64,000 nucleotides of DNA from Bacilli bacterium (GTDB lineage Bacteria > Bacillota_I > Bacilli_A > ML615J-28 > CAG-313): positions 9,072 to 73,071 of the forward strand of contig JAFTPH010000031.1 in NCBI GenBank assembly GCA_017463365.1. Reading direction: 5' to 3'. Positions 22,915 to 40,616 of the stretch are shown piece after piece (position 1 is the stretch's first letter; every line of letters begins with the position of its first letter). The notes beneath the pieces were generated by a model. The model saw only the letters and a program-made list of their open reading frames with translations. It had not been told where the DNA came from and made no database searches. Made by a program: the position numbers and the translations under genes.

Positions 22915-23037
22915 ATGAATTTAAGCAAAAATATTAAAGAATTAAGAATTAAAAATAAGTATACCCAAGAAGAACTTGCAGAAAAATTAAATGTAAGTGT
23001 TCAAACTATATCTCGTTGGGAAACGGGAATTTCTTAG
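22915..23037 (+). pseudogene. N-terminal fragment (40 codons) of an XRE-family regulator, truncated by the element insertion
   Basis: MNLSKNIKELRIKNKYTQEELAEKLNVSVQTISRWETGIS then TAG. It stops exactly where paralogs continue with [YF]PDI. Confidence 0.85.
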
Positions 23038-23234
23038 CGATAAGGAATTGATATAAATAGTCTTTTAGGTGAATTTTTTTGAATTTTAATAAGAGGAAAC
23101 TATAAATTTCTTCTTATTTTTTATTTTAAAAATAATTTATAATAGTGGAATTAAAAGTACAAATTTTTAATTATTTGTTATTTGGATTGAAATATGATAT
23201 AATTCTTGTGTGAGAATGTTTTAGGGAGTTTTTT

Positions 23235-24380
23235 ATGAAGCAATTTGATTTATCTATTTACAAATTAAGCCAACCTTATTTTGATATGTTTGATGTTTTT
23301 TTAAAGGAAAAAGGAATAAGAAAAGAAATTTTTTTATTAGATAATGATATTACACCTAGTACTTACAGACAATGTAGAAAAGGTGAATATAATATTGGTC
23401 CAAAGATAATAAATAAAATGGCTAATAAATTTTCTTTAAAAGTTCCAAATGATGAATTAGTAAATGAAATAGAAATGCTTGTTAACAATATATACTTTGA
23501 TATGTATTATAAAAATTATAAATTATACGATTATTATCAAAATAAAGTAAATGAATTATTAGAAGAAAACTTGATTATTTTTCCTGTTTTAGAACTAGCA
23601 AAACTATATTTAAAATTGAGTTGTAATAAGAGTATTTCTAAAGTAGTTGAAGATAACGAAGAATTATTTGAAAGAATTAAAAAATATCAAGATTTTTTGA
23701 AAAAGGGTTTATTTGAACTATTTGAATTAGTATATTTAAGTTTTGAAAAAAATATTTCTGAAGATTGTTGGATTAAAAATTATAATAATGCTTCCGCATA
23801 TTTTATATTAACTTCAAGAAGTTATATGAATAAAAGATATATTGAAACTTTGTTTTTTGCATCGAAGTGTAAAGAGATATTGTTTATTGATGGAAATATA
23901 AATAGAACAATATATTTGAATAATACGATTATGAGTGCCTTAATACATGTGGGAAATTATGAAGAGTGTTATAATTTATCATTTCGTCAATTAAAAGCAT
24001 TGGAGTCTTTAGATTGTCAAAATCAATTTTTAATTGATGCTTCAAATAAATTTCTATTAATATCAGAATTAGGGAAAATGGAGTATAAAGAGATAATTGA
24101 AAAATGTTTAGATGATGATAATTTATTACTTACCGAAACATTATGTCTTTTAATTGCTCTTTATCAACAAGGTGTTATTGATAAAAATTTATCTCAGTAT
24201 AAAAAATATTACAAAAAATTAGAAGATGATAAGTTAGATGAAAAAAAGGCATCTGTTATAATTGCCCTTAATCAATATTTAAATTGTAAAAGAAAATCAT
24301 TATTAAATAAGCTTTTAGACTTTGAAATTATGAAGCATTTTGAAAAAATATTAGAAAAAATTGTGGAGCAACAAAATTGA
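23235..24380 (+). CDS. Putative RNPP/AimR-like regulator (weak N-terminal HTH + all-helical repeat domain)
   Basis: 381 aa. The N-terminal 70 aa look HTH-like and the rest looks like helical repeats. Size and layout resemble AimR/Rgg/PlcR-type receptors. No sequence search was done. Confidence 0.4.
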   Translation: MKQFDLSIYKLSQPYFDMFDVFLKEKGIRKEIFLLDNDITPSTYRQCRKGEYNIGPKIINKMANKFSLKVPNDELVNEIEMLVNNIYFDMYYKNYKLYDYYQNKVNELLEENLIIFPVLELAKLYLKLSCNKSISKVVEDNEELFERIKKYQDFLKKGLFELFELVYLSFEKNISEDCWIKNYNNASAYFILTSRSYMNKRYIETLFFASKCKEILFIDGNINRTIYLNNTIMSALIHVGNYEECYNLSFRQLKALESLDCQNQFLIDASNKFLLISELGKMEYKEIIEKCLDDDNLLLTETLCLLIALYQQGVIDKNLSQYKKYYKKLEDDKLDEKKASVIIALNQYLNCKRKSLLNKLLDFEIMKHFEKILEKIVEQQN

Positions 24381-24404
24381 ACAAAAACATATTAAATCGT
24401 TTCT

Positions 24405-24431
24405 ATATTGAGACGATTTTTTTTTTTTTTT
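24405..24431 (+). terminator. Terminator with T15 tract
   Basis: Stem AATCGTTTC / GAGACGATT followed by 15 consecutive T (24417-24431). Confidence 0.7.
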
Positions 24432-24530
24432 GTCAATTTTAATAATTTTCGTTTTTTTAAATAAACGAAGTGAATTTGACAAAATTTGGAAAATAATATA
24501 AAATATTAGCATACAAGGAGGAAAAACAAA

Positions 24531-37244: not shown

Positions 37245-37439
37245 ATGAAATGGGTACAAGTTGTAGATAAAGTAGATGAAATAAATACACTAAATGAAAT
37301 TAGAATTAGACTATCAAATGAATTTGAACCTTTAACAGAAACTAATCTATATACCTATGCAACAAGTTTAGTAGATGAAAAATTAGTTGAAGTAATAGAA
37401 AAACTAAAGAAAGGATTAGAAGAAGAAAAAACATTATGA
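37245..37439 (+). CDS. Hypothetical small protein
   Basis: 64-aa ORF with SD GGAG. Its stop overlaps the next start (ATGA). Confidence 0.45.
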   Translation: MKWVQVVDKVDEINTLNEIRIRLSNEFEPLTETNLYTYATSLVDEKLVEVIEKLKKGLEEEKTL

Positions 37440-37651
37440 AAAAAGAAGATACACCAATGCGAATTGCAAGAAGAAATTATGAAGAAAGAAACAAAGAATT
37501 AAGAAAGAAAACAAACGCACAGTTTTCCACATTTATTCCAAGAAGTGATTATGATGAAATAAATGAGTTTTTAAAGAAAAATAATATTACAAAAGTAGAA
37601 TTAATTTATCAAGGATATGAAGCCTTAAAAGAGATGATTAATAAAAAGTAA
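37436..37651 (+). CDS. Hypothetical small basic protein
   Basis: 71-aa ORF, translationally coupled to the preceding ORF. Confidence 0.45.
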   Translation: MKKEDTPMRIARRNYEERNKELRKKTNAQFSTFIPRSDYDEINEFLKKNNITKVELIYQGYEALKEMINKK

Positions 37652-37917
37652 ATATTCAAAGTTTTATCTTCTTTAAAATATTTATAAAGGGAGGTAAAAC
37701 TTATAATTAAAGAAAATAATCTTGTTATTTATGAAGAACAAGGAGATAAAACATTAAAAAGAATTAGAGAAAAGAAAATTGATGATATAGTTTTTGTAAT
37801 TAAATCATCAAGTAAGAAAAATAGTAAAATTAAAAAGAATGAAATAACAAAAAAATTAATACTTAAAAATTTAGAATTTTCACCTGAAAGATGCAAATTA
37901 GAAAAGGAGAACATATT

Positions 37918-39582
37918 ATGAATTTGCAACTTTCAATAAACGCAAAGAAAAATAAAAACATATTAGAAAAATACACAGCTTTATATTGTAGATTAAGTTG
38001 TGATGATGATTTAGCAGGTGATAGTAATAGCATTAAAAATCAAAAAATGTTACTATCAAACTATGCAACTGAGAATAATTTTAGTAATATTAGATATTAT
38101 GTGGATGATGGATTTAGTGGAAGTAATTTTGAAAGACCTGGATTTAAAAGATTGTTATCTGATATTGAAGAAGGCTTAATTTCAACTGTTATCGTAAAAG
38201 ACATGTCTAGATTTGGAAGAGATCATATTTTAGTAGGATATTATACAAAATATGTATTTCCAGAAGCTGATATAAGATTTATTGCAATATATGATCAAGT
38301 AGATAGTTTAACTAATCCAGATGATGATATAACACCATTTAAAAACATTTTAAATGAAATGTATGCGAAAGACTGCTCTAGAAAAATAAAAGCAGTATTA
38401 AAGGCAAAAGGAATGTCTGGAAAACATACAAATGGTGCTGTTCCTTTAGGTTATAAGAAATCACCAAATGATAAGAATTTATGGATTATTGATGAAGAGG
38501 GAGCAAAAATAGTAAGATTAATATTTAAGCTATGTATTGAAGGAAATGGACCTTTCCAAATAGCAAGAATTCTAAATGAAAGAAAAATAGAAAAACCTAT
38601 TGAGTATTTCCATAATAGAGGGATGTCTTGTAATCAAAAACCTAAAGGAGAATACTTTTGGAGACATGCATCAGTAGTTGATATTTTAGAGAACCCCTCA
38701 TATTTAGGCCATACTGTGAATTTTAAATATGTGAAAAAATCACACAAGTCAAAGAAAAAAACACGAGTTTCAAAGGATAATTGGCTTATATTTGAAAATA
38801 CACACGAACCTATCATTGATAAAGAAACATTTGATATAGTACAAAAAATAAGACAAGGGAAACGTAGAATAGATTCCACTGGAGTAGTTCATATGTTAAG
38901 TGGAATGTTATATTGTTCTGATTGTGGTAAGAAACTTTATATTAATAGAAGAAAAAAAGAACATTTACCAGATTATTATAATTGTTCTACTTATAAAGAA
39001 AAAACAAAATCAAAATGTACAGGACATCTTATAATGGTTGATAAGCTAGAACAAATTGTTTTAGATGATTTAAGATATACAATTAATTACTCTAAAGAAC
39101 ATAAAGACATATTTTTAGAAATAGTCAAAGAGCATAACGAAACTAAAACTAATCAAGAACTAAAATTATTAAATAAAACAATTAAAGACACAAAAGAAAG
39201 AATTGTCGATTTAGATAGAATAATACAAGTATTATATGAAGATAAAATAAAAGGATATATTAGTGAAGAAAGATTTCTTAAAATGAATGCTTCTTATGAA
39301 GAAGAACAAGCCACTTTAAAGGTAAAACTTGCAACCCTTCTACAAGAAAACGAAAAAAATAAATCGGCCAATAATAATATTAATCAGTTTATAGAGCTTG
39401 TGGAAAAGTATAGTGATATCACTGAATTAACAACTGAAATAACTCATGCATTTATAGATAAAATTATAGTTCATGAGAAAGTAAAGATGGAAGATGGATT
39501 TAAACAAGAACTTGAAATAATATACAACTTTATTGGTGCTGTAGATATTCCTAGATTTGACAATTTAGATGAGTTAGATTAA
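37918..39582 (+). CDS. Large serine recombinase
   Basis: Resolvase catalytic region YCRLSCDDD...SIKNQK and [10 protein letters not shown]. Recombinase domain, zinc ribbon CSDCGKKLY...CSTY...KC and a C-terminal coiled coil. I prefer ATG 37918 (SD AAGGAG). Confidence 0.9.
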
Positions 39583-39656
39583 AATAGGTGTAGAAAATAA
39601 CTACACCTTAAAAAATAAATTATAGAAATCCTTATCGCTAAGAAAGTGGTGTTAAT

Positions 39657-40616
39657 TTTCCAGATATAAGCATTTTGCCGGATATCGCTAAAATTTTTGA
39701 AGTCTCTATTGATTATTTATTGGGGTATGGAAAAACGTTATCAGATAAAGAATGGGTAAATATGTATGATAATATATCTTCATTTATCCAAATTGGAAAA
39801 AATGAAGAGTGTTTAGAATATTTAAAAGAAATGTTGGAAAAATATCCTGATGATGAAAAGGTACAAATGTGGTATGCACATATGTGTAGACAAGTGCCAC
39901 TTGATAAAGAATTACTAAATAGTGCTATCAAAATATATGAAAAAGTAATTCGTACCTCACGTGATGAAAAAACTAAAAAACAAGCGTATAATGGACTATT
40001 TTATGTATATATGAGGCTTGAAAACAAAGAAGCAATGAAAGATGTATATGATAAGTATCTAAAAAACATTGTTGGCCCCGATTATTATGAAATGTACTTC
40101 TTGGAAGGACTTGAGAAAACAAAGTATTTACAACATCGTCTAGAATTATCGTTACATGATGTCTTTAATACAATTAGACAGCTTAGATTTGGTGATTATT
40201 ATACGAAAGAAGAGAAAAATATATTATTAAAAAAATATTTAGATATTATGGAAATAATGTATGAAGAGCATGATTATGGATTTGATAACTGGAATATGTA
40301 TGAAACATGTAGGGAAATGCTTATGAGATTCAATGAGTTAAATGAGGAAAATAAATGTTTAGAGTATATTGAAAAAGCAACAAATTACGCCATTGATTAT
40401 GACAATATAGATGTAAATGAAAAAACAAAATCTAAACTATTTAATACAAGAGATCTATCTAAAGTTCAAGTATCAATGAGTGGATATAAAGAACCAGGAA
40501 ATATGAGTTTTGAATTAATAAATATTTTAAAACGAGAAGAATTTGATAAATATAAAAATAATAATATATATATTTCTTGTATTGAAAGACTAAAAAAAGT
40601 AGCAAAGAAATATTAA
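39657..40616 (+). pseudogene. C-terminal part of the split XRE/TPR regulator gene
   Basis: In-frame FPDISILPDIAKIFEVSIDYLLGYG, the second half of an HTH_3 domain, followed by about 300 aa of helical domain. It has no start codon or SD of its own at the domain boundary. Confidence 0.8.

Follow-up and report, generated by a model that had tools for sequence, protein, structure and literature searches.

A probable TnpX-type serine-recombinase transposon with toxin cargo splits an XRE/TPR regulator gene of a Bacilli bacterium

Large serine recombinases (LSRs) of the TnpX type are found in Tn4451 and Tn4453 (TnpX) and in Tn5397 (TndX), where a recombinase with a C-terminal DUF4368 domain is encoded next to TnpV and a 2-bp core, GA for both TnpX and TndX, lies between inverted arms. 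The Tn4451 recombinase integrates and excises at identical 2-bp cores without a recombination directionality factor (RDF) (PMC5704250), and an Xis-like role has been suggested for TnpV (PMC3158075). LSRs with a DUF4368 domain form a 'multi-targeting' clade that includes TndX-like transposases (Durrant et al., 2022, PMC10083194). Other LSR elements split coding sequences of spore formers that are rebuilt by precise excision, namely skin (SpoIVCA), SPbeta (SprA-SprB), gin in gerE and yin in yabG (PMC4191935, PMC5595907), and integrative and mobilizable elements (IMEs) lie inside an HTH-XRE regulator gene in Streptococcus suis (Libante et al., 2019, PMC7168690). Here we describe a 16,622-bp element that cuts an XRE/TPR regulator gene of 359 amino acids in two. 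It lies in a 64-kb stretch of DNA from a Bacilli bacterium (GenBank assembly GCA_017463365.1, contig JAFTPH010000031.1, positions 9,072 to 73,071), the whole of which is called the window and is numbered from its first letter. The element is very probably a TnpX-type transposon of the Tn4451 kind that entered the gene at codon Gly38 by exchange between att sites with a GG core, and whose excision would rebuild the gene.

The two parts of the host gene lie on the + strand, as do all features given below unless another strand is named. The 5' part (22915-23027) comprises codons 1-37 and the GG of Gly38; the 3' part (39650-40616) starts with the third base of Gly38 and runs through V39, N40, F41 and P42 to the stop codon. 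As it stands, the 5' part is read as an open reading frame (ORF) of 40 amino acids (22915-23037; MNLSKNIKELRIKNKYTQEELAEKLNVSVQTISRWETGIS and a stop), which ends in ...SRWETGIS and matches positions 1-33 of the 55 in HTH_3 (E=2.2e-13). From ~39650 to 40616, the same frame encodes the remainder of the HTH_3 domain (FPDISILPDIAKIFEVSIDYLLGYG) and a helical, TPR-like protein of ~300 amino acids. Two paralogs in the window read SRWETGVTYPDITLLP (gene 18705) and SKWELGLSCPDITVLP (gene 40838) at the junction motif. An initial annotation of the window had proposed an LSR element interrupting an XRE/TPR gene, with this truncated ORF, the in-frame continuation beyond the right junction and the paralog reads, and each of these was found where it had been placed. 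Joining 22915-23027 to 39650-40616 gives 1080 nucleotides, or 359 codons and a stop, and a search with the rebuilt protein returned five intact 359-residue orthologs at 86, 83, 79, 65 and 63% identity. Both fragments align to these orthologs in conserved synteny and so belong to one gene, as had been supposed; a contiguous version in related genomes, which the annotation had named as a check, thus exists in the same neighbourhood. The 5' part is collinear with the intact orthologs in contigs L008 and L009 up to ...TGGGAAACGGG. The ortholog contigs share the gene order of the window (a SpoVT-like gene, a HepT toxin gene, the 359-residue gene and a 262-residue XRE gene, which starts at 40838 in the window), and the interior of the element is missing at the orthologous loci L008-L011. 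The protein obtained by joining at GG agrees with the closest ortholog, P0001, in 312 of 359 residues; a join at the TT discussed below yields 310. The split gene holds no stops or frameshifts, and its dN/dS is 0.12-0.14 versus 0.17 in an intact ortholog pair. The same right-hand part of the element, right junction and downstream flank occur in five contigs (100% identical, window 29675-40700), and the contig shown here occurs in three samples; the insertion is therefore no artefact of assembly.

The rebuilt protein is an HTH_3 and TPR regulator that carries no sporulation annotation, and the window encodes four or more XRE paralogs, of which it is one. P0001, which shares 86% identity with the rebuilt protein, was modelled (pLDDT 77); the folds closest to the model are those of PlcR, ComR and Rgg, at low TM-scores (0.25-0.31), and the regulator may be RRNPP-like. 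A cognate propeptide ORF next to the regulator, as found in RRNPP systems, was sought and nothing convincing emerged, and scanning the genome collection for the regulator gave distant HTH matches only, at 37-58% identity over the N-terminus.

The gene for the recombinase (554 amino acids, 37918-39582, with a longer ORF from 37891) is the last of the element. The protein contains Resolvase (PF00239, E=5e-20), Recombinase (PF07508, E=8e-26), Zn_ribbon_recom (PF13408, E=3.5e-16) and DUF4368 (PF14287, E=5e-19) domains. Its N-terminus matches the catalytic domain of TnpX (2MHC) at E=1.6e-39, the serine motif ...YCRLS... aligning with ...ALYERLSRDDD... of 2MHC, while the match to SPbeta SprA, a chain deposited as YokA, is much weaker (E=3.6e-18). 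By these matches, the recombinase is a member of the TnpX family. TnpV, which the initial annotation had recognized upstream of the recombinase gene, is confirmed by its domain (36894-37235; PF14198, E=2.8e-14); together with two small ORFs of 64 and 71 amino acids (orf64 and orf71) it occupies 36894-37651, and all three are kept with the recombinase in every sister element (L012-L023). Recombinase relatives at 59-60% identity adjoin Mob_Pre relaxase genes, as in Tn4451, and those at 60% are Mob_Pre carriers found in many different sites, which ties the window element to the Tn4451 family. There are nonetheless clear differences from that family. The window element has no counterpart of the Mob/TnpZ (MobV/Pre) relaxase carried by Tn4451, its recombinase gene reads outward at the last position instead of forming the left end, its cargo is a toxin cassette instead of catP, and its core is GG instead of GA, although a sister element has GA. 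Whereas the Tn4451 family shows low target specificity, the known targets of the window sub-lineage are all HTH_3 genes entered at one codon register.

Two sister insertions help to define the ends of the element. One of them (L023 6342-11723, with the element at about 6452-11723) is 5,272 bp long and encodes a recombinase 97% identical to that of the window; it keeps TnpV, orf64 and orf71, and differs in cargo (an HTH protein, DUF6773 and Peptidase_C92). It splits another HTH_3 gene, of 164 amino acids, and leaves a stub of 42 amino acids that ends in ...SKWENDIS and a stop. Intact versions of this 164-residue target, 98-99% identical in protein, are present in six empty-site contigs from related genomes, with the same synteny (L026-L031). 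In contigs L013-L022, the 3' part of a third HTH_3/TPR-like gene lies downstream of the gene for a second 97%-identical recombinase (P0019), a protein distinct from that of L023. Window positions 36681-39649 are ~95% identical in nucleotides to L023, and positions 35264-39649 are ~94% identical to L013. The mobility module (the tnpV region) is about 95% identical to both, and since these copies sit at two other sites with other cargo, the module appears to have moved recently.

The ends themselves contain a perfect 17-bp inverted repeat (TTTCTTAGCGATAAGGA) at 23030-23046 (+) and 39629-39645 (-). The initial annotation had reported it as 14 bp; it is borne out and longer, and these are its only two matches in the 64-kb window at up to 3 mismatches, with 0.19 expected by chance. 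It lies within two terminal arms, P' on the left (AATTTCTTAGCGATAAGGA, 23028-23046) and P on the right (TCCTTATCGCTAAGAAAGT, 39629-39647), which are symmetric at 18 of 19 positions. The P' arm is conserved in the L023 attL; the P arm is identical in L023 and has one mismatch in L013, and the insertions diverge directly after it. Every dinucleotide shared by both junction regions was scored for attP symmetry and for restoration of the ORF. The GG pair at 23026-23027 in attL and 39648-39649 in attR, identical in both, has the top symmetry score (inner 19-bp arms, 18/19), tied with one TT pair that is out of frame, and is the only top scorer to restore the 359-residue ORF, which reads ...SRWETGVNFPDIS.... 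The excision product would read ...SRWETG-VN-FPDIS..., as in the orthologs, which agrees with the earlier claim that precise excision restores the gene. The predicted attP is TCCTTATCGCTAAGAAAGT-GG-AATTTCTTAGCGATAAGGA and the predicted attB ...TCGTTGGGAAACG-GG-TGTTAATTTTCCAGAT...; the corresponding joints would be TGGGAAACG-GG-TGTTAATTTTCC for attB and CGCTAAGAAAGT-GG-AATTTCTTAGCG for attP, and the predicted junction sequences are TCTCGTTGGGAAACGGGTGTTAATTTTCCAGATAT (attB) and CCTTATCGCTAAGAAAGTGGAATTTCTTAGCGATAAGG (attP).

Comparison with the sister insertions places the exchange independently of symmetry. When the register is numbered from the G of the Glu codon in the W-E motif, the window junctions read GAAACGGGAATTTCTTAGCG (attL) and GAAAGTGGTGTTAATTTTCC (attR), and those of L023 read GAAAATGATATTTCATAGCG (attL) and GAAAGTGATATCAGTTTACC (attR). 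For L013, the attR is GAAACTAATGATTCATATCC and attL is missing, as all contigs start inside the element. In both complete cases, dinucleotides common to attL and attR occur only at positions 1-4 (GAAA) or 7-8. The six L023 empty-site contigs all read ...AAGTGG GAAAAT GA TATCAGTTTACC... (GAAAAT-GA-TATCAG), with an A at position 5, like attL (attR has G), and a C at position 12, like attR (attL has T). This confines the exchange in L023 to positions 6-11, excludes the GAAA option and leaves position 7-8 as the only one that fits both insertions. The inverted repeat is centred exactly on the same position (AAGAAA-GT-[GG]-AA-TTTCTT). Insertion was conservative, that is, left flank, core and right flank are joined with no gain or loss: this is seen directly for L023 against its six empty sites, and the same length of the 359-residue orthologs suggests it for the window locus.

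Insertion would thus have occurred by recombinase-mediated exchange between attP and attB at the GG with which the Gly38 codon begins in the S-R-W-E-T-G stretch of HTH_3. A recombinase dimer would bind both arms and cut at GG, and the half-sites of attB would be supplied by DNA encoding S-R-W-E-T on one side of the cut and G-V-N-F-P-D on the other. The insertion inactivates the regulator gene, leaving a stub of 40 amino acids with an element-encoded end and a promoterless 3' fragment. The reverse reaction between attL and attR would release a circle and rebuild the gene exactly, to 359 amino acids, as a side effect of the cycle by which the element itself transposes. Since Tn4451-family recombinases carry out integration and excision alone, this reaction should need no helper protein. 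The window copy may be active at present.

Several other explanations have to be weighed against this transposon with a GG core. The crossover could lie elsewhere, at the TT pair proposed by the initial annotation (23034-23035/39656-39657), at the TA-centred palindrome that it also considered, or at a GA of the TnpX/TndX kind inside GAAA (23020-23021/39642-39643), all of which we find extremely improbable. The TT join does give a 359-residue ORF by arithmetic, and in this respect the earlier proposal stands; the GA join does so as well, and GAAA is common to attL and attR in every lineage. However, the TT falls at positions 15-16, where L023 has AT in attL and TT in attR, and it would assign to the host gene the stub residues 'IS', in place of which the orthologs read VN, AN or TN. 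The last codons of the stub (ATT TCT TAG, 'IS' and stop) have no counterpart in any ortholog and are therefore element-encoded. At the DNA level, homology of the right fragment to the intact gene begins 8 bp upstream of the TT join, with GGT GTT AAT TTT CCA GAT in the window aligning with GGC GTT AAT AAT CCA GAT in L008. The TA palindrome would leave an in-frame TAA and 18 additional nucleotides. As for GA, the L023 empty sites read GAAAAT as in attL, not GAAAGT as in attR, which moves the exchange further 3', and attP would sit 6 bp off the repeat axis; the circle would read GAAACGGGAATTTC in the GA model and GAAAGTGGAATTTC in the GG model. A different question is whether the insertion serves the cell. 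The initial annotation took the host for a spore former and suggested a gene-intervening element like skin or SPbeta, whose developmental or stress-regulated excision would be a reversible switch on the XRE regulator, akin to active lysogeny. Excision does rebuild an intact ORF on paper, the known precedents use LSRs (PMC4191935, PMC5595907) and a SpoVT-like gene lies nearby; weak hints are that the split gene is undecayed, with the low dN/dS given above, and that the insertion is present in all sampled contigs of the host species. Against this, the target is not a known sporulation gene and belongs to a set of paralogs, and sporulation of the host is not established. The SpoVT-like protein is the only sporulation-like gene product in the window and scores 166 bits versus a cutoff of 235.9, and the 90%-identity cluster of ribosomal protein S19 includes a metagenome-assembled genome of Anaeroplasma bactoclasticum as the nearest named relative, which casts doubt on a classical clostridial spore former. 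Unlike skin, SPbeta, gin and yin, with which it shares an LSR and a split coding sequence, the window element has a recombinase of the TnpX family, a type that needs no RDF, and shows no evidence of an RDF or a sporulation promoter. The upstream region of the recombinase operon, scanned for sigma-70-type promoters, holds instead a consensus site of this vegetative type that matches at 12 of 12 positions. Nor is the element a prophage: Pfam and PHROG searches gave a holin and one PHROG of unknown function, and no capsid, tail, terminase or portal genes. Moreover, sister copies in other genes show recent mobility, and empty sites occur commonly in the population, as fits a selfish insertion; neither a restored allele nor a circle was detected in the collections searched. 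A developmental switch is thus very unlikely.

The opposite view, of a fixed insertion on whose ends the recombinase has ceased to act and of a regulator lost for good, is distinctly unlikely too. It draws on the failure to see an empty site or circle for the window locus and on the lack of relaxase or conjugation genes among those found in the element, and it has to contend with an intact recombinase ORF that retains the catalytic serine motif, with arms that are 18/19 symmetric around identical GG cores, with copies of the module, 95% identical, that accompany other cargo at two other sites, and with undecayed fragments of the host gene. The preferred account, a TnpX-type transposon with a GG core, has its own difficulties. 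The empty site of the window gene is deduced from orthologs that are at most 86% identical and do not come from the same species. The core differs by lineage (GG in the window, GA in L023 and probably AA in L013, whose attL is lacking), and as the core should stay constant within a recombinase lineage, it must have changed at some stage in each lineage. No circular attP junction was found in JGI metagenomes or IMG/VR with TCCTTATCGCTAAG-N(0-20)-TAGCGATAAGGA as the joint, and no restored, empty-site allele of the split gene among 5.8 billion protein clusters. Finally, Pfam and NCBIfam scans of the element ORFs gave no Mob_Pre or other relaxase and no conjugation gene; the element differs in this from Tn4451.

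The choice of target is a distinctive trait of the sub-lineage. All three known targets are HTH_3 genes entered in the same codon register, and the core takes up the first two positions of the codon that follows W-E-x: GG of Gly in the window, GA of Asp in L023 and, probably, AA of Asn in L013. In the window, other XRE paralogs (18807, 40946 and, on the - strand, 49619) read TGG GAA nnn GG..., with CCN GAT/AAT downstream in the attB register, and are candidate secondary landing sites. As the three targets share the register and the window paralogs also have GG, the preference looks like recognition of a conserved coding motif, and the recombinase appears, by these alignments, to target DNA encoding S-x-W-E-x. 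The sub-lineage shares its domain architecture with the DUF4368 multi-targeting clade (PMC10083194), and here, too, 97%-identical recombinases occur in several target genes. However, the three targets are not arbitrary or merely AT-rich, but encode the same protein motif with lineage-specific cores. A bolder and rather improbable extension is that the sub-lineage has evolved to recognize DNA for the HTH_3 recognition-helix motif (S-x-W-E-x, with crossover in the next codon), lands in many XRE paralogs and is retargeted by changes of the core, so that its insertions could be reversible, phase-variation-like knock-outs of RRNPP-like regulators.

HTH_3 targeting does not extend to the relatives at 59-60% identity: P0042 is found in at least five unrelated flanks, and P0035 next to peptidase genes. 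In contigs L032-L037 (about 4680-4800), an identical recombinase of 559 amino acids (P0042, 59% identical to that of the window) lies beside Mob_Pre, and its right end is constant through ...CCCTATCGGTATTGCGGTAA, after which at least five unrelated flanks follow; identity of the protein across five such flanks makes this a clear multi-targeting, Tn4451-like element. In contig L025 (1694-1790), different arms and a fragment like the 3' end of a tRNA (GGTTCGAGTCCCACCGG, minus strand) come after the gene for a 76%-identical recombinase (P0021), and ARAGORN found no complete tRNA there. Given these different arms and the tRNA-like flank, HTH_3 targeting seems confined to the 97% sub-lineage. The 18-mer TAGCGATAAGGAATTGAT, tried as a probe for further element ends, gave 24 metagenome and 2 viral matches, all of them chance hits in unrelated coding sequence with no similarity beyond the 18-mer, and a 22-mer from the right end had no match in IMG/VR. 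The element family seems to be present in ENA/Logan assemblies only.

With one copy of the GG core, the element extends from 23028 to 39649, its 16,622 bp being the core-to-core distance. A promoter scan placed a promoter-like site (23175-23203) upstream of the leftmost cargo ORF, which encodes 381 amino acids of no recognisable family (23235-24380); the cargo also holds a protein of 141 amino acids without a family match. Between 25284 and 35176, further cargo genes follow. They encode a sigma-70-family-like protein with a weak region-4 match (25284-26012; Sigma70_r4 at E=9e-5, below the gathering score; TIGR02937 at E=1e-5, below cutoff; sigma factor phrog_1740 at E=2e-6), an XhlA-like membrane/coiled-coil protein of 94 amino acids (26102-26386; phrog_1863, E=4e-16, with a weak 'hemolysin' phrog match), a Hol44-type holin (26542-26832; Phage_holin_5_2, E=7e-14), an aBig_2-domain protein (26825-27940; E=4e-21), a Mur-ligase-family protein (27962-29335; Mur_ligase_M and Mur_ligase_C; MurE-like, far under the equivalog cutoffs), an RHS/YD-repeat toxin of 1745 amino acids that includes a pretoxin-HINT domain and whose C-terminal tip is short and variable (29340-34577; PT-HINT at E=7e-18, RHS_repeat, YD repeat) and, after the toxin, a putative immunity protein of 199 amino acids (34577-35176). 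Clostridial toxin and bacteriocin loci pair a dedicated sigma factor with holin-type export (uviAB-bcn, TcdR/TcdE), and in its gene order the window cargo resembles such loci. Neither the toxin tip nor the immunity protein is related to its counterpart in the sister element L013, the pattern expected of polymorphic toxins. An 'ILHHP...H' stretch in the tip possibly resembles an HNH/LHH nuclease. The tip, the immunity protein, the 381- and 141-residue proteins, orf64 and orf71 had no significant match in Pfam, NCBIfam, PHROG or PADLOC.

Between the cargo and the mobility module, a sub-module that is missing in L023 (35270-36706) combines iteron-like repeats with a DUF6291 gene (35963-36628; E=5e-18). 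A ~35-bp motif with the ending GCAGGATAAG flanks it on both sides, as a full copy (TGTTGCATTTCGCCTTACTTTATAGGCAGGATAAG, ...AGGCAGGATAAG, 35270-35304) and as a diverged one (ending ...AAGCAGGATAAG, 36672-36706). As L023 has a single copy of the motif (8758-8792) and lacks the 1.4-kb block, the iterons and DUF6291 look like a separable cassette, or a deletion between the repeats. Five iteron-like direct repeats with the core CTTTCCATATATAGTGAGGG (35514-35888) lie just 5' of the DUF6291 gene at alternating spacings of 86 and 76 bp, and may serve the excised circle as an origin of replication or as binding sites for a regulator. The consensus sigma-70-type promoter mentioned above (TTGACA-17-TATAAT, 36836-36864; a pattern match only) lies upstream of tnpV, orf64, orf71 and the recombinase gene. 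An outward promoter-like site (TTGACA-17-TAAAAT) lies in the 3' end of the recombinase gene (window 39557-39608), followed by a GC-containing hairpin (39586-39608) between the stop codon and the P arm; an equivalent hairpin is present in the 76% and 60% recombinase relatives. The hairpin scans as a terminator for the opposite strand only. Possible roles of site and hairpin are to shield the element from host transcription or, in the circle, to drive the left-end genes.

Outside the element, a toxin-antitoxin pair lies directly 5' of the split gene (22125-22803) and consists of an MNT-like nucleotidyltransferase, with PADLOC PDC-S09 matches, and a HepT-like RNase; HepT is also found upstream of the intact gene in L009-L011. 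Further away (1-17223 and 50057-62980; GC content 29.5%), the window encodes gyrB/gyrA, serS, fhs/folD, pth, mfd and the S10-spc ribosomal protein operon, a gene content that marks it as chromosomal and of an origin-proximal type.

Much of the framework for this element is already described, including gene-splitting LSR elements, RDF-independent transposons of the TnpX type, multi-targeting DUF4368 recombinases and an IME in the HTH-XRE gene of S. suis, which shares the target gene family with the window element and differs from it in host and cargo (there, resistance genes). What is new is the exact position of the att sites of this TnpX-family recombinase, the toxin cargo and a hint that the HTH_3 motif serves as a landing pad with lineage-specific cores. 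For the host, the consequence is an ordinary one: it loses one of its several paralogous regulators, acquires a toxin/immunity cassette and gives no sign of using the insertion as a switch. For the family, the locus provides attL, attR, attP and attB at base-pair resolution for a recombinase that was uncharacterised. If the targeting holds true, this would be a mobile element whose landing pad, a conserved protein-coding motif, exists in multiple copies, and the change of core dinucleotide between lineages would be a natural retargeting relevant to the engineering of 'multi-targeting' integrases.

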